A stretch of DNA of 64,000 nucleotides from Oscillospiraceae bacterium (GTDB lineage Bacteria; Bacillota; Clostridia; Oscillospirales; CAG-272), in assembly GCA_015064785.1 (NCBI GenBank), contig SVRM01000001.1:349-64348 (forward strand). The letters are read 5' to 3'. Positions 20,458 through 35,794 of the stretch are shown here, piece after piece. How positions within the stretch are numbered: position 1 is the stretch's first letter; each line of letters starts with the position of its first letter. The translations under genes were made by a program, and so were the position numbers. The notes below the pieces were generated by a model. That model was given only the letters and a program-made list of their open reading frames with translations. It was not told the origin of the DNA and ran no database searches.

Positions 20458-21405
20458 TTATTTGTGATCGATGAGTGCTTCTTCCATGTGCCGTGCGAGC
20501 AGATCCATTGCGCGGATGCACTCGATGTCATATTCCCGGAGATCGGATTGGGGACGCTTGCGTGTGACAATGCTGTCAAGGGGCAGACCGGCGATCTCGC
20601 GGAGATGGTACTTCGCTGTGACAGGATAGGCGAGTGATTCTGTGAATGCAGCGGTACCGAGGAATGCTTGTACCAGTTCGGCTTTCTGCGGCTCCTGCTC
20701 AAAATGCGAACACAGCCAAGCATACAGCGCCGGGTGGAAGTTGCACATGACACCGCAGTATCCGGCAGCACCGGAGCGCATCGATGAAAGCAGTGTCTGA
20801 GCACTGGCGTTGTATAGCTGCATCGGCGTGCCGCGCAGAAGTTCACAGCGATGCGCCATCAGCGCGGCATCACAGCAAGTATCCTTCATATAAGCAAACC
20901 GTCCGGATTGTGCGCAGAAAGATAACATTCTGTCACTCATCAGCCGCTTGTACGGATACGGACATTCATACACACCAAGTGATATCTGCGGAAGCGCATT
21001 CATCAGCCGCGCAGTATCTGCAATCCACGCATCGTCTCCGGTATTGGCAATGTCCATCCGGTTGGAAATGAGAATCAGCGTATCAATGCCGGTATCGGCG
21101 ACTGCCAAAAGCTCATATACCTGTTCCTCAAACGTATCGGAAACATGACCTGAGGCGACAATTTTCATCTTCGGACGCTCGGGATGCGCCGCTGCAATCT
21201 CGGCAGCACGGTCCACCACGGTCTTTGTCAGAAGGACACGTTCCGCAACGCTGAGATTGAAGATTTCGCTGGACTGACACGCGGTGAAAATTCCCCCGCA
21301 TCCAGCTTCTGCATACCAGTCGCACATGGCACGGACAGCGCCCGTGTCTATATGGTTGTCTTGTGTAAACGGTGTAATCATCGTTGGAAATGCACTGCAA
21401 TTCAT
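20458..21405 (-). CDS. Dihydrodipicolinate synthase/N-acetylneuraminate lyase family (DapA-like) protein
   Basis: Start set at ATG 21405 (MNCSAFPTMITPFTQDNHID), behind GGAGGAG. The first 49 codons of listed ORF 20458..21552 are Arg/Cys-rich, read like noise, and overlap a terminator. Confidence 0.7.
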   Translation of the reverse strand: MNCSAFPTMITPFTQDNHIDTGAVRAMCDWYAEAGCGGIFTACQSSEIFNLSVAERVLLTKTVVDRAAEIAAAHPERPKMKIVASGHVSDTFEEQVYELLAVADTGIDTLILISNRMDIANTGDDAWIADTARLMNALPQISLGVYECPYPYKRLMSDRMLSFCAQSGRFAYMKDTCCDAALMAHRCELLRGTPMQLYNASAQTLLSSMRSGAAGYCGVMCNFHPALYAWLCSHFEQEPQKAELVQAFLGTAAFTESLAYPVTAKYHLREIAGLPLDSIVTRKRPQSDLREYDIECIRAMDLLARHMEEALIDHK

Positions 21406-21445
21406 ACTGTAACTCCTCCACTGTTGGGTTATCCTACTGTTATCC

Positions 21446-21474
21446 ATTATACCGCATGACGCCGTGGTTGTCAA
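21446..21474 (-). promoter_or_regulatory. Candidate consensus sigma-A promoter for the DapA-like gene
   Basis: On the minus strand: TTGACA (21474..21469), 17 bp, TATAAT (21451..21446). Confidence 0.5.
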
Positions 21475-21484
21475 GAAGAACCAA

Positions 21485-21530
21485 CAAAAAAACGAACGCT
21501 GCCGTGAGCAGGATCCTCTCGGGCAGCGTT
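21485..21530 (-). terminator. Intrinsic terminator after the Na/Pi cotransporter gene
   Basis: On the minus strand: AACGCTGCC...GGCAGCGTT stem followed by a TTTTTTT run. Confidence 0.65.
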
Positions 21531-21538
21531 TACGCGTT

Positions 21539-23239
21539 TTATGATTCTGCAATCAGGTGACTTTCTCTCTGCGAGCCAATCGGATTGGTGACACTGTAAC
21601 CGACATTGACCAGATGGTCAGCGACACGTTCCAGACCGGCAACCAACGAGGAGTAGTACGGACTGACATCTACGTTGCAGTTGCCTTCTGCCAGACGTGC
21701 AAAATGGCTGGCAATCAGCTGCTTCTTCATAGTGTCGACGCCTTCTTCAAGCTCCGTCAGCTTCAGAAGCTGATCCTTGTTCAGATTTTCAAAGGCATCC
21801 TTGGCAATTTCAAACATCTGCAGCACGCTGATGCGCATGTTTAAGATTTCACCGCGCGCTTTCTCGGAGAAAGCGATCTTCTTGCCGATCATTTCAACAC
21901 CGATTTCATGAAAATTCTCTGCATGATCGCCGATGCGTTCCAGGTCATTGAGAACGTGGAAATACGTACCAATGACGCGTTCATCGCTTTGCTCGACATT
22001 GACTGACAGCTTGATTAAGAATTTGTTCAGGGCGCTGTTGGTAAAGTCGATGATCTCCTCGTTCTTGCGGATGAGCTCACCGTATTCCGCGGAACCGGTA
22101 TCGATGGAGTTGAAGGAGCATCTGATGTTTTCCTCAACCAACGCAATCATGTGGTCCATTTCCTTTTTGACCTGCATCAGAGCGACAGGCGGCGTTTTCA
22201 GAAGTCGGTCGTCGACATACTTGAGGGAAAGTGTTTCCTCAGATTCCTTTTTGTCATGGATGACCATGCAGGAGTAGTTGACAAGCTGATGAACAAACGG
22301 GAGAAGAACTGCCGTGGTTGTCACGTTGAAAATGACATGGAACAGCGACACGCGCATTTGCAGCGACATCGGATCGCTGCCCGGGAAAATCGAAACCAGA
22401 AAATTGACGAACACATCTTTGAAAATCCAAAGAACCGCGGTAAAGAGAACCGTACCGATGACGTTGAATGTAAAGTGAATCAGTGCAACACGCTTGGAGT
22501 TTGCATTGGCACCGACGGAGGCAAGCAGTGCAGTCACACAGGTACCGATATTGGCACCGAGGACGATAAACAGCGCCAGCTCGAGCGGAAGAACACCTGT
22601 CCCGACCATCGTGATGACGACACCGGTGGAAGCAGAGGAGCTCTGAATCAGCGCTGTAAAGATGATACCGACTACAATCAGAAGCAGCGGGAAGTCGATT
22701 CTCTGGAAAATACCGGTGAACAGCTCCTCAACCAGAGGATTACCAAAAGCCTGTTCACTGCTCATGACCTCCAGACCGACGAAGATCATACCCAGACCGC
22801 AGCAGAGACTGCCGGCGATTTTGATTTTTTCCTGCTTGACAAACCCCATCATAACGCCGGCAAATGCAAGCAGATACATGACCATATTGAAATAATCGTT
22901 TTTCAGCGCGACCAGAACACCGGTGATGGTTGTACCGATATTGGCACCCATGATGATCGGTGTTGCCTGCATAAGCGTCATAACACCGGCGTTGACAAGA
23001 CCGATGACCATGACAGACGTAGCGGACGAGCTCTGAATGATCGCCGTGACACCGGCACCGATACCAACGCCGGAAAAACGGTTGTTGCTGATTTTTTCCA
23101 GCAGCTTCTTCATACCGCTGCCGGCACTCTTTTCCAGTGCATCACCCAAAAAATTCATGCCGACGATAAATACACCGACACCTGCCAGAAGCCAGATCAG
23201 GCTCTGCACTAACTGCAAAATTTCATCTGCGGATAACAT
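21539..23239 (-). CDS. Na/Pi cotransporter family protein with C-terminal PhoU-like repeats
   Basis: Polytopic N-terminal half (GANIGTTITG and GANIGTCVTA repeats), PhoU-like C-terminal half (ERIGDHAEN, LERVADHLVN). Start at ATG 23239 behind AAAGGAAGAG. Confidence 0.85.
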   Translation of the reverse strand: MLSADEILQLVQSLIWLLAGVGVFIVGMNFLGDALEKSAGSGMKKLLEKISNNRFSGVGIGAGVTAIIQSSSATSVMVIGLVNAGVMTLMQATPIIMGANIGTTITGVLVALKNDYFNMVMYLLAFAGVMMGFVKQEKIKIAGSLCCGLGMIFVGLEVMSSEQAFGNPLVEELFTGIFQRIDFPLLLIVVGIIFTALIQSSSASTGVVITMVGTGVLPLELALFIVLGANIGTCVTALLASVGANANSKRVALIHFTFNVIGTVLFTAVLWIFKDVFVNFLVSIFPGSDPMSLQMRVSLFHVIFNVTTTAVLLPFVHQLVNYSCMVIHDKKESEETLSLKYVDDRLLKTPPVALMQVKKEMDHMIALVEENIRCSFNSIDTGSAEYGELIRKNEEIIDFTNSALNKFLIKLSVNVEQSDERVIGTYFHVLNDLERIGDHAENFHEIGVEMIGKKIAFSEKARGEILNMRISVLQMFEIAKDAFENLNKDQLLKLTELEEGVDTMKKQLIASHFARLAEGNCNVDVSPYYSSLVAGLERVADHLVNVGYSVTNPIGSQRESHLIAES

Positions 23240-30061: not shown

Positions 30062-31342
30062 TTATAAGAGATACTGCTGGATTTTTTCTGCCGGGATATC
30101 GCGCAGACGGACGTTTTCCTTTGCCGCAATAGCCGCCGCGACACCGCCAGCCTCACCGATGCCGACACAGATCGGCATGACACGGTAATTAGAATGCGCC
30201 ATGTGCGTACCGCTGATGTTGCGTCCGGACAGAAGCAGTCCTTCCACGCCGAGGGGAACGAGACAGCCCCACGGAATGGTGTAGCCCTTGCTCTGGCTCC
30301 ATTTGTGCTGAACACCGGTTTTGTCAAGACCGGCTCCCGTCAGATTGTGTACGTCAAAGTTGAAATGCGCACCGCGCACGACCCAGTCATCAAACACACG
30401 TGCCGTGAGAATATCTTCCTCGTTGAGCACATATTCTCCGCTGAAGTGTCTGGTCTCACGCACACCCATCATTGAGCCTGCACTGATGACATAGCAATGC
30501 TCAAAGCCGGGAACAAATTCGCGCAGATAGGCAACGATTGCGGGAATCTGCGAACGGCAGACGATCTCCGCGCGGGTCAGGTCTTCCGCCTTTGTGCCGT
30601 CGATTTCGGTACAGTTGGTCATATTGCAGGTGATGATGCCGGGAAGCGTTGTGGGATAAACCAGAAGATGACCTGCGGGATACGGAATGTGCGCTTTTGC
30701 CAGTGCCTGCAATTCTCCTTTTTCGGTCTGATGCGTCGATTCAAACGAACCGAGCAGAACCGCCCTGTCCGTGTCCACGCCTGCGACCTTGAACATCAGC
30801 GTAGCCGGCTGCATCTTGCCGTCGGATTCCCTGCCCTTGTAGTATGGAACGCCGGCAAATGCCGCGGCATCACCGTCACCCGTGCCGTCGACGACAACCC
30901 TGGAGGTGAACACGCGCCGACCGGACTTGCTCTCAGTGATAACACCGGTGACGCGGTTTCCGTCCATCACAACACCGGCGACAAACGTATACAAAAGCAG
31001 CGTCACACCCGCTTCGGCAAGCATGTCAAAATAGACTGCTTTGAGCAGCTCCGGATCAATCTGACGGACAATTTTTCCATGTCCGGCACCCTCGACCTTT
31101 TCCGCCTGTCTTGTCAGAATTTCGGTATAGAGCTTTGACTGCACCGTTCCGGTCCAGTGGCTCATCAGACCGGAGGTCGAAATACCGCCGGGGCAGTTGT
31201 TGTATTCGAGCAGAAGGGTCTTTGCGCCCATTCTCGCCGCCATGACCGCCGCCGAAACACCGGCAGGTCCGGCACCGGCGACAATGACATCGTATTCGCC
31301 TGCAACGGGCAGGTCTCTTGCCTGTTCATGATATACCGTCAT
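30062..31342 (-). CDS. FAD-dependent oxidoreductase (FAD_oxidored/GIDA-like family)
   Basis: 426 aa. N-terminal dinucleotide fold YDVIVAGAGPAGVSAAVMAARMGAKTLLLE. Confidence 0.8.
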   Translation of the reverse strand: MTVYHEQARDLPVAGEYDVIVAGAGPAGVSAAVMAARMGAKTLLLEYNNCPGGISTSGLMSHWTGTVQSKLYTEILTRQAEKVEGAGHGKIVRQIDPELLKAVYFDMLAEAGVTLLLYTFVAGVVMDGNRVTGVITESKSGRRVFTSRVVVDGTGDGDAAAFAGVPYYKGRESDGKMQPATLMFKVAGVDTDRAVLLGSFESTHQTEKGELQALAKAHIPYPAGHLLVYPTTLPGIITCNMTNCTEIDGTKAEDLTRAEIVCRSQIPAIVAYLREFVPGFEHCYVISAGSMMGVRETRHFSGEYVLNEEDILTARVFDDWVVRGAHFNFDVHNLTGAGLDKTGVQHKWSQSKGYTIPWGCLVPLGVEGLLLSGRNISGTHMAHSNYRVMPICVGIGEAGGVAAAIAAKENVRLRDIPAEKIQQYLL

Positions 31343-31394
31343 ACATCAATTCTCCTCTTTTCCATGCGGAACCGGGTTCCGCGATTCTGCTATT

Positions 31395-31423
31395 ATTTTA
31401 TACCAGAATCCGCAAAATGTCAA
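31395..31423 (-). promoter_or_regulatory. Candidate sigma-A promoter for the FAD oxidoreductase gene
   Basis: On the minus strand: TTGACA, 17 bp, TAAAAT. Confidence 0.4.
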
Positions 31424-31449: not shown

Positions 31450-32715
31450 TTATGCCTCCGGATCCGTCATCGTACCGATGAAGAACGGCACACCACGCGC
31501 ACAGTCGATGAGCATGTAGAGAAACGGGCGGTCAAGATACACCTGCTTGGGTTCTTCAATCAATGCGGCGCATCCGTCGCTCATTTCAATGACCGTCGCC
31601 GCACCCGCTTTGGTTCCGCGCGCATCCACGCATAAAAACGTTTTGTGCAGAACACGGCTGATAAAGAGATTGCCGTCAGTCGAGTGTCCGAGTCGCGAGA
31701 AATCGGATACCGCGCTGTCAAATGCATCGGGCATTCCCATTGCACACAGAATTTCACTCATCTCCGCGTTGTATTCCGTTTCAAACTGCGGAATTGCGGT
31801 ATAAACTGTGGCGGTCATCGGGTTTTTCAGCATTTCATACAGCCTCTCACCGTCCAGCGATGCCGCATATTCTGACAGGGTAATACCTTCTTTGGGCAGA
31901 AGTGCGGCAAAAGCGTATCTGCCGCCGCGGTAGGTTTTGATAAAGCCTGTCGCATATGCATCCTCAAGATACCGGCTTTCCTCTCCGTACATCATATCGA
32001 CATCTCTGCTCTCACCTGATTCCGTGGTAAATATGCCTTCCCTGACCTGCGGCTTGCGGTAGATATCCTGCCATTCGGCATCAAAGGCAAGCGCATTGAC
32101 CAGATACATCACCGCGTCTGCCGGAATTTCATCCAGAATTTCGCGGATCATACCGTCGGTTTTGTCCTTTACCCAGCGATTGATCTCACGACAGGCTGCC
32201 GCATCCAAGGGGGCTTGGTAGATGTCGGCACCGTACAGGTCGGCGTTGGTCTGAAGAAATTCCGGGCTGACGGTAAAGCGGGCATCATCAGTAAACCAGA
32301 TCGCATTGGCAAGGTGCATTTTGCAGGCTTCCTCGTTGGACTGCGAGGTCAGATATCCGTGCATCCATTCATTGAGATGGGATATCGGCATCCCGAGTAC
32401 CTGCTCCATCTGTGCAAGGGTTTCTCCTGCCGCGCCGTTTGCGGTCATCGAAAGTGCAGATGCCACCGACAGCGGTGAGATCAGTGTGTTTCTGCCGTCT
32501 TCCATGCACGCACGGAGCAGACGCACTGCAAAGTCCGTCATCGCGGGGTCACCAAGTTCAGCAGCTGCGGTGCTGTCAGAGGATACCGGGTTTGCCGTGA
32601 TGCCGCGCATCAGATCATCCGAAACCGGTGCGCCGCAGGAGCAGAAGGTCAGCACGGTCAGTGCCGCCGCCAGAAAAACTGTAATCATCCGTTTCATAAA
32701 CTTCCTCACAATCAT
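31450..32715 (-). CDS. Serpin (serine protease inhibitor family), secreted lipoprotein
   Basis: 421 aa. Signal peptide plus lipobox (LTFCSCG). Serpin blocks ISPLSVASALSMTANGAAGETLAQMEQVLG, hinge GTKAGAATV and C-terminal DRPFLYMLID. Start at 32715 (TAATG overlap with the upstream stop) or ATG 32697. Confidence 0.9.
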   Translation of the reverse strand: MIVRKFMKRMITVFLAAALTVLTFCSCGAPVSDDLMRGITANPVSSDSTAAAELGDPAMTDFAVRLLRACMEDGRNTLISPLSVASALSMTANGAAGETLAQMEQVLGMPISHLNEWMHGYLTSQSNEEACKMHLANAIWFTDDARFTVSPEFLQTNADLYGADIYQAPLDAAACREINRWVKDKTDGMIREILDEIPADAVMYLVNALAFDAEWQDIYRKPQVREGIFTTESGESRDVDMMYGEESRYLEDAYATGFIKTYRGGRYAFAALLPKEGITLSEYAASLDGERLYEMLKNPMTATVYTAIPQFETEYNAEMSEILCAMGMPDAFDSAVSDFSRLGHSTDGNLFISRVLHKTFLCVDARGTKAGAATVIEMSDGCAALIEEPKQVYLDRPFLYMLIDCARGVPFFIGTMTDPEA

Positions 32716-33530
32716 TAATCATATAAAAATTCGTAATCGGGCAGAGCCTGCCATGCATCTGTCGCGGTCAGGAGATCGGTGATGTCCCGGCAGGCAGAGA
32801 GGAACGCCTGTCCTTTTTTGTTGGATGCTTCATAGATCAGTGCAATATTCTTGCAGGTGACTGTCCTGCTTTGACCGCCGGCGCGCACCGTCAGTACAAG
32901 CGTCATCGCCGGGCTGGTTGCCAGTGTCGGATCGGGATGATATTCGGCAGGATAACGGTTGATATCGAGTGTGCGGAGCATGTCGTATATGTTCTCTGTC
33001 TCCTCCGGGGACAGAACATATTCTGTCACATAGTCCTCCGGATGCGTCGCATCGCTTGTTTTGATCAGGACACCCGACTTGCTGTCGTAGGAGCTGATTC
33101 CCCAACACCCCCAGCGCAGAAAGAAGGAAAAATCCTCCGGCACGGTTTCGGGCAGATCCAGCTGCGTCGGCGGAATCCACCCAAGCTCCGCAAGCTGTGG
33201 CTGTACCTGCAGCGGAATGTCATCAAGCCCGCCGCGGGATAGACGGATAACGGCATATGCTCCGGTTTGTGCCGGATAGGTTGTGGCAATGCGGTCATGC
33301 AGGACGAGTATTTGATCCCCGTCCGCAATGTCGGAAAACAGCGCACCGTAGTGCAGTCTGTCCTCCATCACAATCGGTGTTGTGCCGTCAATGAGCAGAA
33401 ACTGCCCGTTTGCCGTCATGCACCGGCCGACGGTGATGCTGTATCCGTTTGCCGCCATCAAAACAGCGGCAAGTGCGCAAAGGACAGCAAGCGCGATGGC
33501 AGCGATCAGAAAGATCCAGCGCTTTTTCAA
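32715..33530 (-). CDS. N-terminally membrane-anchored protein of unknown function
   Basis: 271 aa. TTG start behind GGAGGG. One hydrophobic helix (WIFLIAAIALAVLCALAAVLMAA). I recognise no motif in the ectodomain. Confidence 0.7.
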   Translation of the reverse strand: MKKRWIFLIAAIALAVLCALAAVLMAANGYSITVGRCMTANGQFLLIDGTTPIVMEDRLHYGALFSDIADGDQILVLHDRIATTYPAQTGAYAVIRLSRGGLDDIPLQVQPQLAELGWIPPTQLDLPETVPEDFSFFLRWGCWGISSYDSKSGVLIKTSDATHPEDYVTEYVLSPEETENIYDMLRTLDINRYPAEYHPDPTLATSPAMTLVLTVRAGGQSRTVTCKNIALIYEASNKKGQAFLSACRDITDLLTATDAWQALPDYEFLYD

Positions 33531-33544
33531 AGTGTATCCCTCCT

Positions 33545-34183
33545 TTAATCCGAATCGAGAAGGCTTGCAATCGCCTTGATTTCCTCCTCTGTCAGCGTCA
33601 CGGACACACCGGTTTCCATATCAAGCAGGCAGTTGCCAGAAACATGGTAAACATGCGGATTGTCCGCCGCATCGAGGAAGGTGATGTCAAAGATGCCGTC
33701 CCCGACGCTGCCGTACCGGTCGTCCGTCAGATGGCCATAGTCTTCCGTGACCGGTTTGGTCTCCGCAGGCGTACCCTCACCGGTCGATTTGTCCACTGCC
33801 GCTTCATCCCGCGTGGTGCTGTCTGCGTCCCCGTCTTCCGTGAATGCGGTCTGCAGAAGTGCATACACCGCCGCAATCTGCTCGCTGTCCTGAATGACAG
33901 CCGTACCGGTATCCCTTCTCACGGACATGCTGACATACGGTGGAATTGCCTCCTGATTTTCGCATTCCGGCGCGGCATCCTCCAGAGCGGCACTGTCGGA
34001 GCCGACAACACGGCTGACACGCCACACCCCGCCGACCAGCAGAAGCAGACATGCGGCAATGGCACCCCAGCGCGTCCAATGTGTGCGCGGTGCCGATGTT
34101 TTCTGCATCCGCAGACCATTGACCGCTTCCAGCAGATCGTCGTCTATGTATTCCATTGCATCAAAAATCAGATCGGTTGTCAC
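33545..34183 (-). CDS. Single-pass membrane protein translationally coupled to the sigma factor (putative anti-sigma factor)
   Basis: 212 aa. GTG start in a GTGA overlap with the sigma stop. About 38 cytoplasmic residues, then TM helix WGAIAACLLLLVGGVW, then an acidic ectodomain. The N-terminal module is homologous to that of the ORF at 63087. Confidence 0.7.
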   Translation of the reverse strand: MTTDLIFDAMEYIDDDLLEAVNGLRMQKTSAPRTHWTRWGAIAACLLLLVGGVWRVSRVVGSDSAALEDAAPECENQEAIPPYVSMSVRRDTGTAVIQDSEQIAAVYALLQTAFTEDGDADSTTRDEAAVDKSTGEGTPAETKPVTEDYGHLTDDRYGSVGDGIFDITFLDAADNPHVYHVSGNCLLDMETGVSVTLTEEEIKAIASLLDSD

Positions 34184-34740
34184 AGGATATATCCCTCCTC
34201 CTCCAGATATGTGCGCAGATGCTGTCTTGTGCGGAACAGCATCGATTTTGCTTTTCCCTCACTCATGCCGCAGTAGGACGCGACATCACGCAGGGTATCC
34301 ATATAATAATACCGCCCGATGAACGCATTGCGCTCCTCCGGTTTCAGTGTCCGAAGGAACCTGTTCAGCAGCTCTCCGAGCACCTTGGCATCGAGTACGC
34401 TTTGCGGGTCTTCTCTGTCCGTCATGAGATCCTCCATTTCCGTCATCGAAAGTGCAAATTCACCTTTTCCGCGTTTTTGCGAGGTGCGGCGGCGCCAACG
34501 GTCGATGGATATTCGCCGGGTCAGCTTGCCGAGATACGTCGACAGCACCGACGGTCTCTGCGGCGGGATCGAATTCCAGGCGGCAAGGTAGGTATCGTTG
34601 ACGCTTTCCTCGCTGTCACCGGGATCATCCAGAATGTTATGCGCGATCTTCGTCAGATACGCCGCGTATTTTTCCTGCGTTGCGGTGATCGCCGATTCGT
34701 CACGTTCCCAGTACAATGCCACGATTTGTTCGTCTTGCAT
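34180..34740 (-). CDS. Sigma-70 family (ECF-like) RNA polymerase sigma factor, paralogue A
   Basis: 186 aa. Region 2 block SEESVNDTYLAAW, RRISIDRWRRR, and region 4 block KAKSMLFRTRQHLRTYL. Confidence 0.9.
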   Translation of the reverse strand: MQDEQIVALYWERDESAITATQEKYAAYLTKIAHNILDDPGDSEESVNDTYLAAWNSIPPQRPSVLSTYLGKLTRRISIDRWRRRTSQKRGKGEFALSMTEMEDLMTDREDPQSVLDAKVLGELLNRFLRTLKPEERNAFIGRYYYMDTLRDVASYCGMSEGKAKSMLFRTRQHLRTYLEEEGYIL

Positions 34741-34899
34741 ATGATGGTCCCCTTTCTCTTGATGTACTTCTGTCTTATATCTCGCAAAGAAATGGTTTCG
34801 GTTTCACTTTCCGGCAAAAATTTTTCAAAAAAGTATAATTTTCCGCAATGTTCCGACGTTGCTTGAATGATTTCACCGATGGAGAATGATCTTTCCGAT

Positions 34900-34928
34900 A
34901 TTATACAGCAAACCCATACACTTGTCAA
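34900..34928 (-). promoter_or_regulatory. Consensus sigma-A promoter upstream of sigma paralogue A
   Basis: On the minus strand: TTGACA (34928..34923), 17 bp, TATAAT (34905..34900). Leaves a leader of about 155 nt. Confidence 0.55.
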
Positions 34929-34952: not shown

Positions 34953-34981
34953 TTGACAAACGGCGTTTTCTGTGATATCAT
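34953..34981 (+). promoter_or_regulatory. Candidate sigma-A promoter for the MBL-fold gene
   Basis: TTGACA, 17 bp, TATCAT with TGa extended -10. Confidence 0.45.
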
Positions 34982-35011: not shown

Positions 35012-35794
35012 ATGAAAATCACATCCCTTCTTGAAAATACAACCTGCCGCAGCGATATGCAGACCGAGCACGGGCTTTCACTGTATATAGAAACCGACGA
35101 ACACCGCATCCTGTTTGATATGGGGCAGACCGATCTGTTTGCCCAAAATGCAAAGACGCTCGGCATTGATCTGACTGCGGTAGATATCGCCGTGCTTTCC
35201 CACGGTCATTACGACCATGGCGGAGGATTGCGGACATTCCTTTCGATCAATGACCATGCGCCGGTCTATGTTCACTGCGATGCGTTTCTGCCGCACTACA
35301 ACGGTACCGAAAAATACATCGGTCTGGATCCGGAGCTGCAAGCCCATCCGCGCCTTTCTTTTACCGATGATGTCTGTACCATTGATGACACGCTGACGCT
35401 TTTTTCCTGTAACCAAAAGAAACGGGAACACAGCTTCGGTGCCTTCGGATTGACAGAACGAGTCGGAACTGCTTTCCACGAAGACGATTTTCGACATGAA
35501 CAGTATCTTTTGATTGAGGAGGTGGGCAAGCGTGTTCTGATCAGCGGATGCTCTCACAAAGGAATTCTTGATCTTGCCGCGTGGTTTTCACCGGATGTAC
35601 TGGTTGGCGGCTTCCATTTTTCCAAGCTGGAGGTGGGTGCGGTGCTTGCAGATGCCGCCGGACAGCTTGCAGCGCATCCGACGCAGTATTACACCTGCCA
35701 CTGTACCGGAGAAATGCAGTATACATTCATGAAGCAATCCATGCCGAATCTGCACTATCTTTCCTGCGGGGAAACACTGGTATATCCTGCCTGA
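35012..35794 (+). CDS. MBL-fold metallo-hydrolase
   Basis: 260 aa with the HGHYDHGGG metal-binding motif. AAGGAG RBS upstream. Confidence 0.85.
   Translation: MKITSLLENTTCRSDMQTEHGLSLYIETDEHRILFDMGQTDLFAQNAKTLGIDLTAVDIAVLSHGHYDHGGGLRTFLSINDHAPVYVHCDAFLPHYNGTEKYIGLDPELQAHPRLSFTDDVCTIDDTLTLFSCNQKKREHSFGAFGLTERVGTAFHEDDFRHEQYLLIEEVGKRVLISGCSHKGILDLAAWFSPDVLVGGFHFSKLEVGAVLADAAGQLAAHPTQYYTCHCTGEMQYTFMKQSMPNLHYLSCGETLVYPA

Follow-up and report, generated by a model that had tools for sequence, protein, structure and literature searches.

What is a sigma factor doing in front of a protease inhibitor? The question is raised by four closely packed minus-strand genes in a 64,000-nt stretch of an Oscillospiraceae bacterium genome (GenBank assembly GCA_015064785.1, contig SVRM01000001.1, positions 349 to 64,348), which we call the window. 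The genes encode, in order, a sigma factor, a 212-aa single-pass membrane protein, a 271-aa membrane-anchored protein and a serpin, and their arrangement, which recurs in other genomes, suggests that a membrane signalling pair switches on a protease inhibitor in these bacteria. We regard it as fairly probable that they form an autoregulated extracytoplasmic function (ECF) operon whose output is a surface-tethered serpin of the inhibitory type together with a membrane-anchored accessory protein. Both products are proposed to sit on the outer side of the cytoplasmic membrane in a Clostridia bacterium of the gut or rumen type. The four genes are the following.

34180..34740, minus strand: ECF sigma gene, 186 aa, termed type A here
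33545..34183, minus strand: candidate anti-sigma gene, 212 aa, GTG start
32715..33530, minus strand: gene for the 271-aa membrane-anchored protein, TTG start
31450..32697, minus strand: gene for a tengpin-like serpin lipoprotein, 415 aa from ATG 32697 (the open reading frame, ORF, reaches 32715 and would give 421 aa)

These ORFs had been recognized in the original prediction, which was made from the letters alone, and both the ORF list and the sequence bear out their positions. Homologues were found for all four products, so the genes are real. The sigma and 212-aa genes share a 4-nt GTGA overlap, and a 14-nt gap leads to the 271-aa gene, whose TTG start lies seven bases behind GGAGGG (33543..33538) and is backed by homologues starting M-K-K-(K/R) at the same place; all these elements were present as first described. 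The last junction had been read as a TAATG overlap into a 421-aa serpin. However, ATG 32697 (MKRMITV...) is preceded by a GAGGAAG Shine-Dalgarno sequence at 32707..32701, the gene called by JGI (metagenome 3300031555, contig Ga0318466_10008506) has 415 aa and starts at this ATG, and the homologues all start MKR or MKK at the same point. The serpin thus most likely starts at ATG 32697, behind a 17-nt gap. An exact-sequence look-up with the 421-aa ORF returned no match because the called gene is the 415-aa form. The sigma/212-aa junction is therefore the only true overlap, although no gap in the operon exceeds 17 nt. A motif scan of the window found no internal ECF promoter motif inside the operon, and terminator-like sites in the operon were no more numerous than in shuffled sequences, none of them convincing. 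Together with the occurrence of the same gene pair upstream of serpins in 14 other species, the tight spacing upholds the sigma-linked serpin operon.

The 186-aa protein matches Pfam Sigma70_r2 (residues 23-86), r4_2 (124-175) and Sigma70_ECF, and scores above the cut-off of NCBIfam TIGR02937 (sigma70-ECF). It comprises regions 2 and 4 only, with no region 3, as expected of an ECF (group 4) sigma. Its orthologues upstream of serpins are 39-72% identical, and a paralogue with 50% identity is encoded at 62533..63090 in the window.

Two promoters can be proposed upstream of the sigma gene.

34900..34928, minus strand: promoter P1, sigmaA type, TTGACA-17-TATAAT, 12/12 match, ~160 nt upstream of the sigma start
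34775..34805, minus strand: promoter P2, ECF type, GAAACC-N15-CGAGATATAA, the proposed autoregulatory promoter of the operon

P1 had been put forward earlier as the promoter behind which the chain lies, and its match at 34928..34900 is indeed complete. It cannot serve as evidence for control by the sigma, however, for it is the sigma-70/sigmaA consensus and not a sequence that an ECF sigma would use; by itself it points to sigma-independent basal expression. The conserved promoter that fits an ECF sigma is instead located at 34805..34775 and reads GAAACC-N15-CGAGATATA. When the 260 nt preceding the sigma gene were inspected without alignment at 16 loci (14 other species and the two loci of the window), tG(A/C)AACC-N15-CGAG(A/T)ATATA was seen at 15 of them, at a distance of 49-84 nt, once 132 nt, from the sigma start. 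P2 shows the ECF hallmark (an AAC-containing -35 and a CG-containing -10 element) and resembles the Bacillus ECF promoter class TGAAAC-N16-CGTA; its use by the sigma is a prediction. It is the sole clean copy of the motif within the 64-kb window. In ~774 kb covering the 80 serpin loci described below, the motif occurred exclusively upstream of type-A sigma genes, and the idea that 'orphan' serpins use this promoter was rejected, as a clean copy was never found away from sigma genes at these loci. Additionally, a sigmaA-like or extended -10 site is located further upstream in about 9 of the 16 orthologous loci. Considering the conserved P2 and these upstream sites, the operon is probably transcribed from P1 at a basal level and from P2 under autoregulation. 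A search of the whole window against Rfam, which took in the long 5' leader of the operon, gave no family.

The perfect TTGACA-17-TATAAT upstream would also suit a quite different account, in which there is no regulatory link at all: the serpin would be expressed constitutively from a housekeeping promoter and its adjacency to the sigma would result from gene shuffling, or it would be a non-inhibitory structural protein or chaperone. We consider this account highly unlikely. The retention of the ECF promoter in 15 of 16 loci speaks against it, as do the recurrence of the linkage and the serpin hinge, both described below.

How often does a sigma gene accompany such serpins? One genome per species was scanned with an alignment of the serpin clade, yielding 80 serpin loci from metagenome-assembled genomes of gut and rumen Clostridia, mainly Oscillospiraceae and Lachnospiraceae; the upstream flank was at least 1.5 kb long in 65 of them. 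Type-A sigma and anti-sigma genes are located directly upstream on the same strand at 14 of the 80 loci, with 39-69% identity for the sigma; the two genes usually overlap each other by 4 nt, with a gap between anti-sigma and serpin genes of mostly 3-42 nt. ORF inspection of loci apparently lacking a sigma then identified a second ECF family, type B, which is unrelated to type A (182-183 aa, Pfam r2 and r4, sequence MDNGASSYRRFLDGDESAFD...) and immediately precedes the serpin gene at 16 further loci. In addition, locus L030 ends at a contig edge, and its counterpart L171 shows the type-B sigma. In total, ~31 of the 80 serpin loci (65 with the upstream flank given above) are ECF-linked, and the linked serpins are spread across the serpin tree and not confined to one part of it. 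The type-B loci have a conserved promoter-like motif of their own, TAAGGAAyT...CGTATAAT, and an anti-sigma of their own type with the N-terminus MR.FEERKAEIF.RSE.RI, whose ectodomain is often the C-terminal domain (CTD) known from the 271-aa protein. A conserved GC-rich leader element, GGGGTCAGACGTGA(G/T)CCC, was also observed in the type-B upstream regions. This recurrence over species and over two sigma families argues against mere adjacency.

The serpin itself has the features listed below.

within 32652..32632, minus strand: lipobox FCS-C (LTFCSCG)
32619..32584, minus strand: N-terminal extension DDLMRGITANPV
31617..31522, minus strand: reactive-centre loop
31617..31591, minus strand: hinge GTKAGAATV
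31533..31504, minus strand: DRPFLYMLID block

Its full-length fold is indicated by the PF00079 match (E = 1.7e-80, model positions 2-370 of 370). Among solved structures, tengpin 2PEE is the nearest (E = 1e-101, residues 34-416), and the alignment begins within the N-terminal extension (DLMRGITANPVS versus NLMDRIKANPVS). The signal peptide ends MKRMITVFLAAALTVLTF-C-S-C and presumably conforms to the PROSITE lipoprotein pattern. In all homologues, the lipobox Cys (T-A-C, S-A-C or T-G-C) falls at the position of this second Cys, and the product is therefore predicted to be a lipid-anchored surface protein. The lipoprotein signal noted at first is thus confirmed, whereas the description of the serpin as secreted has to be modified, the protein being tethered to the cell surface and not free.

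The lipobox and reactive loop were compared across 25 homologues with 57-78% identity. The hinge GT(K/R)AGAATVVE is invariant, the ~9 residues that follow (P4 to about P5') are hypervariable, and the subsequent (E/D)PK(Q/E)V(Y/F)LDRPF is conserved. Residues P15-P9 are small (G-T-K-A-G-A-A), with no proline or charge at P12-P9, as in serpins of the inhibitory class. This pattern of invariant hinge, hypervariable loop and conserved flank is typical of inhibitory serpins and suggests that the protein inhibits proteases; in particular, a hinge of small residues that is invariant in the clade speaks against a structural protein or chaperone. The hinge, the DRPFLYMLID block and LTFCSCG map to the nucleotides first noted, and the hinge had already been recognized there as inhibitory in type. 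The loop had also been judged about 5 residues longer than that of alpha-1-antitrypsin, in agreement with our count of 30 residues from the P15 Gly to the PF motif against what we take to be 25 in alpha-1-antitrypsin; the extra five residues sit on the primed side. The earlier remark that residue P1 could not be assigned stands: canonical counting from P15 gives Gly at P1 and Cys at P1' (Glu/Cys or Gly/Ala in relatives), from which no specificity can be read.

The regulatory partner of the sigma is probably the 212-aa protein, whose segments include the following.

34174..34109, minus strand: cytoplasmic motif DLIFDAMEYIDDDLLEAVNGLR
34069..34016, minus strand: membrane helix
33838..33695, minus strand: ~45-aa disordered acidic insert in the ectodomain

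A word-indexed homologue search found two near-identical relatives only, whereas an exhaustive phmmer search returned 61 hits sharing the N-terminal motif and membrane helix. About 10 of these are full-length homologues (~200 aa, 24-38% identity); the remainder share residues 1-60 only and continue into unrelated C-termini of very different lengths. A survey of the 14 type-A serpin loci, locus L005 and the second locus of the window showed that the motif M..E.(L/I).DAL..(L/I)DD(D/E).I..VD.LR and one membrane helix occur in every protein following a type-A sigma. The gene directly follows the sigma gene at 16/16 loci, and a 4-nt overlap was read in ~11. Because the motif and helix are common to all these proteins, the 212-aa protein is a candidate anti-sigma factor, and we infer that it binds the sigma. 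No match to Pfam or NCBIfam was obtained for it, and no hit to zf-HC2 or another anti-sigma family in these databases exceeded the cut-off. Moreover, with a cytoplasmic part of ~35 aa and one predicted helix, it lacks the four-helix class I ASD/ZAS domain of ~70-90 aa. If it is an anti-sigma factor, the short cytoplasmic part and the missing family match would therefore make it a short, unclassified type. The AlphaFold2 (AF2) model has a pLDDT of 58.7 overall and 75-84 in the folded part, with a helix at 16-26, the membrane helix at 35-59, folded segments at 83-119 and 164-210 and a disordered segment at 118-161. The ectodomain is thus modelled as a small alpha/beta domain interrupted by the ~45-residue disordered acidic insert.

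Sensing or processing had been considered for both membrane proteins, and structure prediction had been advised. For the 212-aa protein, the single-pass topology was retained and the shared motif and helix led to its reading as an anti-sigma; its AF2 model gave nothing significant in a PDB fold search. The 271-aa protein, whose segments are listed here, was modelled with confidence.

33518..33450, minus strand: N-terminal membrane helix
~33140 to 32718, minus strand: CTD

The AF2 model (pLDDT 89) comprises the membrane helix, an OB-like N domain and an alpha/beta C domain. The best PDB matches are OB folds for the N domain and Mago nashi for the C domain (E = 4e-4, TM ~0.6), and they point to no function for the protein. 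It has ~200 homologues and no Pfam family; for the N domain, DUF3221 (PF11518) gave weak hits in 23 of 38 family members (best E = 6e-4), and none above threshold in the window protein itself. Homology to the type-A anti-sigma ectodomains was rejected, the hhalign probabilities being 13% and 6%. The results give no support to the suggested place in a processing machinery; the CTD of the 271-aa protein is a recurrent neighbour of serpins and elsewhere forms the ectodomain of a different anti-sigma. The CTD is highly conserved (PEDFSF.LTW..GISSYDS..G.L.KT.DATHPEDY ... WKALPDYEF.YD) and shares 53% identity with the type-B anti-sigma ectodomain encoded directly upstream of serpins. It occurs in three forms, namely in the 271-aa protein, in a ~170-aa lipoprotein and as the type-B anti-sigma ectodomain, all of which can directly precede a serpin gene. 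Among the other CTD contexts checked (P0008/L005, P0009, P0045, P0054, P0068 and P0101), two are in sigma-serpin clusters and three stand alone, while in L005 the sigma is present and the serpin absent.

The anti-sigma N-terminus and a serpin are also found joined in one polypeptide. The second locus of the window, a sister of the operon, is organized as follows.

62366..64000, plus strand: sister locus, with a P1-like promoter at 62366..62394, an ECF-type motif at 62451..62481 and the sigma paralogue at 62533..63090
from 63087, running off the window, plus strand: fused anti-sigma::serpin ORF, with an ATGA overlap with the sigma paralogue

In the product of this ORF, the anti-sigma motif comes first and is followed by a membrane helix and a serpin domain. 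The full fusion, 479 aa long, was seen in L086 (7717..9156, minus strand), directly after the sigma. In L042, the anti-sigma motif and membrane helix of a 451-aa protein are joined directly to AEDLMEGITPN..., the mature serpin start of the window serpin's own clade. L119 is probably a third fusion with an interrupted frame, so that anti-sigma::serpin fusions occur at two loci at least and probably at three. The serpin of the sister locus is only 27% identical to that of the operon, and because the fused serpins are this divergent, the two clear fusions (the sister locus and L042) must have arisen independently. They are the strongest hint that anti-sigma and serpin act together at the membrane surface.

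The type-A sigma family extends far beyond serpins. At 80 metagenomic type-A sigma loci, a serpin was present in one and none followed in the other 79, and the idea of a serpin-dedicated sigma family was rejected on this ground. The remaining metagenomic loci encode anti-sigma proteins with ectodomains of 200-980 aa. The family is best described as a general module of which the serpin is one recurrent cargo. These data would accord with a generic envelope-stress ECF module that responds to a non-protease signal (cell-wall damage, antimicrobial peptides or bile), with the serpin and the 271-aa protein as interchangeable cargo: the sigma family is widespread and mostly without a serpin, its ectodomains vary greatly in length, and unknown extracytoplasmic domains are shuffled among the clusters. 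On the other hand, two unrelated ECF families precede serpins in ~31 of 80 species and independent fusions have occurred; this argues for a specific functional tie and not random cargo, and we judge the generic module unlikely.

In the autoregulated operon that we favour, P1 would provide basal transcription of all four genes, and the 212-aa protein would hold the sigma in an inactive state by means of the short, conserved N-terminus that it exposes to the cytoplasm. An extracytoplasmic signal would then inactivate or degrade the anti-sigma. Our guess is that extracellular serine proteases attack the ectodomain with its 45-residue disordered loop and that intramembrane proteolysis follows. The released sigma would drive P2, so that sigma, anti-sigma, 271-aa protein and serpin rise together, and the surface serpin would trap the protease, shield surface proteins and reset the system. 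Extracellular proteolysis as the inducing signal is speculation and the weakest element of the scheme; it was proposed because of the analogy with the two-component system of Bifidobacterium breve described below, the exposed disordered loop of the anti-sigma and the fusions.

Several observations weigh against this scheme. The data contain no pointer to proteolysis as the signal, and from the canonical P1 Gly of the serpin (Glu in many relatives) no target protease is apparent. The 212-aa protein has a short cytoplasmic part that was modelled with low confidence and that matches no known anti-sigma domain family. With so exact a housekeeping consensus at promoter P1, a large share of the expression could be independent of the sigma. 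Roughly half of the related serpins lack a sigma within 6 kb, as would also be expected if there were no regulatory link. The scarcity of serpins at the metagenomic type-A sigma loci counts here too, as does L005, which has the same sigma, anti-sigma and 271-family protein without a serpin.

The target of the serpin might also lie within the cell's own machinery. Under this alternative, it would inhibit an endogenous protease (the site-1 protease or the cell's own secreted subtilisin-type enzyme) and act as the brake of the operon, with induction leading to more serpin and blocking further cleavage of the anti-sigma; the fused forms would carry the brake on the anti-sigma itself. Among the known site-1 proteases that act on anti-sigma factors are several serine proteases, which favours such a brake. 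Moreover, the lipobox and membrane helix would place the serpin and the anti-sigma ectodomain in the same compartment, and the repeated fusion of serpins to an anti-sigma anchor fits action in cis. Nevertheless, the clusters and their flanks contain no conserved protease gene, the hypervariable P4-P5' stretch is easier to reconcile with a range of external targets than with a single conserved enzyme of the cell, and the characterized gut bacterial serpins inhibit host elastase-like proteases (PMC5127057; PMC8012564). An endogenous target therefore seems improbable to us.

A bolder version of the favoured scheme, which we offer tentatively and with considerable doubt, is that the ECF/anti-sigma/serpin modules are protease sensors as a class. 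Cleavage of the anti-sigma ectodomain would lead to surface serpin; in the fusions, the serpin would be a transmembrane receptor whose suicide reaction is the signal, and the CTD would be a new sensor domain interacting with serpins or proteases. If this holds, it would be the first case of a serpin acting as a signalling sensor in bacteria, and if the fused proteins are sensors, they would add a new input domain to ECF signalling.

The components are all of known kinds: an ECF sigma, a single-pass anti-sigma and a tengpin-like serpin. What looks new is their combination, its frequency, the serpin-fused anti-sigmas and the serpin-associated domain. The sigmaW-RsiW and sigmaV-RsiV systems likewise consist of a two-domain sigma and a co-transcribed single-pass anti-sigma, with an autoregulated promoter of the GAAAC...CG type; their sigmas are released by regulated proteolysis, a step that for the serpin operon is a proposal. 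The output of sigmaV-RsiV is resistance to the sensed agent, lysozyme, which is the logic proposed here for the serpin operon. Unlike these systems, the operon has a ~35-residue cytoplasmic anti-sigma segment without a described domain, an ectodomain of no known fold and a serpin as output. In Clostridium thermocellum, sigmaI-RsgI provides clostridial anti-sigma factors with interchangeable extracellular sensor modules; sigmaI, however, is not ECF-sized. The cellulosomal serpins of this species are used outside the cell and protect surface machinery (PMC12484212), but they carry dockerins and are not reported to be sigma-linked or fused to an anti-sigma.

Tengpin of Thermoanaerobacter tengcongensis (PDB 2PEE, 2PEF and 2VH4) shares with the window serpin the hinge GTKAGA and the N-terminal extension (DLM.GI.ANPVS), which in tengpin stabilizes the native metastable state. 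The window serpin differs in its lipobox, a reactive loop two residues longer, Gly/Cys at canonical P1/P1' and the ECF sigma operon; to our knowledge, ECF-type regulation has not been described for tengpin. The siropins of Eubacterium siraeum and miropin of Tannerella forsythia, both from host-associated bacteria, also have Gly/Ala-rich hinges and inhibit host elastase-type proteases, and miropin uses several bonds within its loop (PMC5127057). They are only distantly related to the window serpin (E = 5e-45 for miropin), and no sigma-linked operon is described for siropins or miropin in the searchable literature. A precedent for a signalling system dedicated to a serpin is the operon of B. breve, which proteases induce through an adjacent two-component system (PMC8012564); there, in a different phylum, a histidine kinase and response regulator take the place of the ECF sigma and single-pass anti-sigma seen here. 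Full-text searches for serpin together with anti-sigma, ECF sigma or extracytoplasmic function returned coincidental co-mentions and no paper describing a link.

In inflammatory bowel disease research, the serpins of gut bacteria receive attention as modulators of host proteases (PMC8201313, PMC13376542), and little is known of their regulation outside bifidobacteria. The linkage, the fusions and the travelling domain together provide a concrete model, open to experiment, of the way in which commensals would detect proteolysis in the gut lumen and respond to it; the promoter motif, sigma and anti-sigma are ready parts for such experiments.

Unknown extracytoplasmic domains were seen to be shuffled among the ECF/serpin clusters, and segments with 39-65% identity are common to the proteins L005_585, L011_373 and L080_278. 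In L174 there are two serpins, between which lie a 335-aa protein and four small ORFs. L171 (6070..6531) and L172 (2135..2596) encode, directly downstream of a sigma-linked serpin, a protein of 153 aa that gives a faint dockerin hit, a possible link to cellulosome-type surface assemblies. The loci concerned are listed here.

Type-B sigma upstream of serpins: L017, L019, L020, L022-L024, L029, L033, L041, L047, L050, L055, L059, L060, L069, L082, L171, L174
Shuffled domains: L005 4247..7341; L011 4865..5986; L080 7243..8079; L174 2770..8537

Perfect TTGACA-17-TATAAT sites number four in the window, against 0.01 expected from shuffled sequences, and two of them precede the paralogous sigma genes of the two sigma-serpin operons. 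Besides P1, the sites are the following.

21446..21474, minus strand: inside or beside the ORF at 20458..21552
62296..62324, minus strand: facing the divergent URO-D gene (61226..62242)
62366..62394, plus strand: upstream of the sister-locus sigma gene

Downstream of the operon, between the serpin stop and a gene for a FAD-dependent oxidoreductase (31342..30062), lie a near-consensus promoter, TTGACA-17-TAAAAT (31395..31423, minus strand), and a perfect inverted repeat, GCGGAACC/GGTTCCGC, at ~31367..31383. Given this promoter, the oxidoreductase gene has a promoter of its own, and read-through from the serpin operon may also reach it. On the other side, a metallo-beta-lactamase-fold gene (35012..35794, plus strand) stands back-to-back with the sigma operon. 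It is preceded by a divergent promoter-like site, TTGACA-17-TATCAT with TG, at 34953..34981 (plus strand), and the two promoters are ~25 nt apart.

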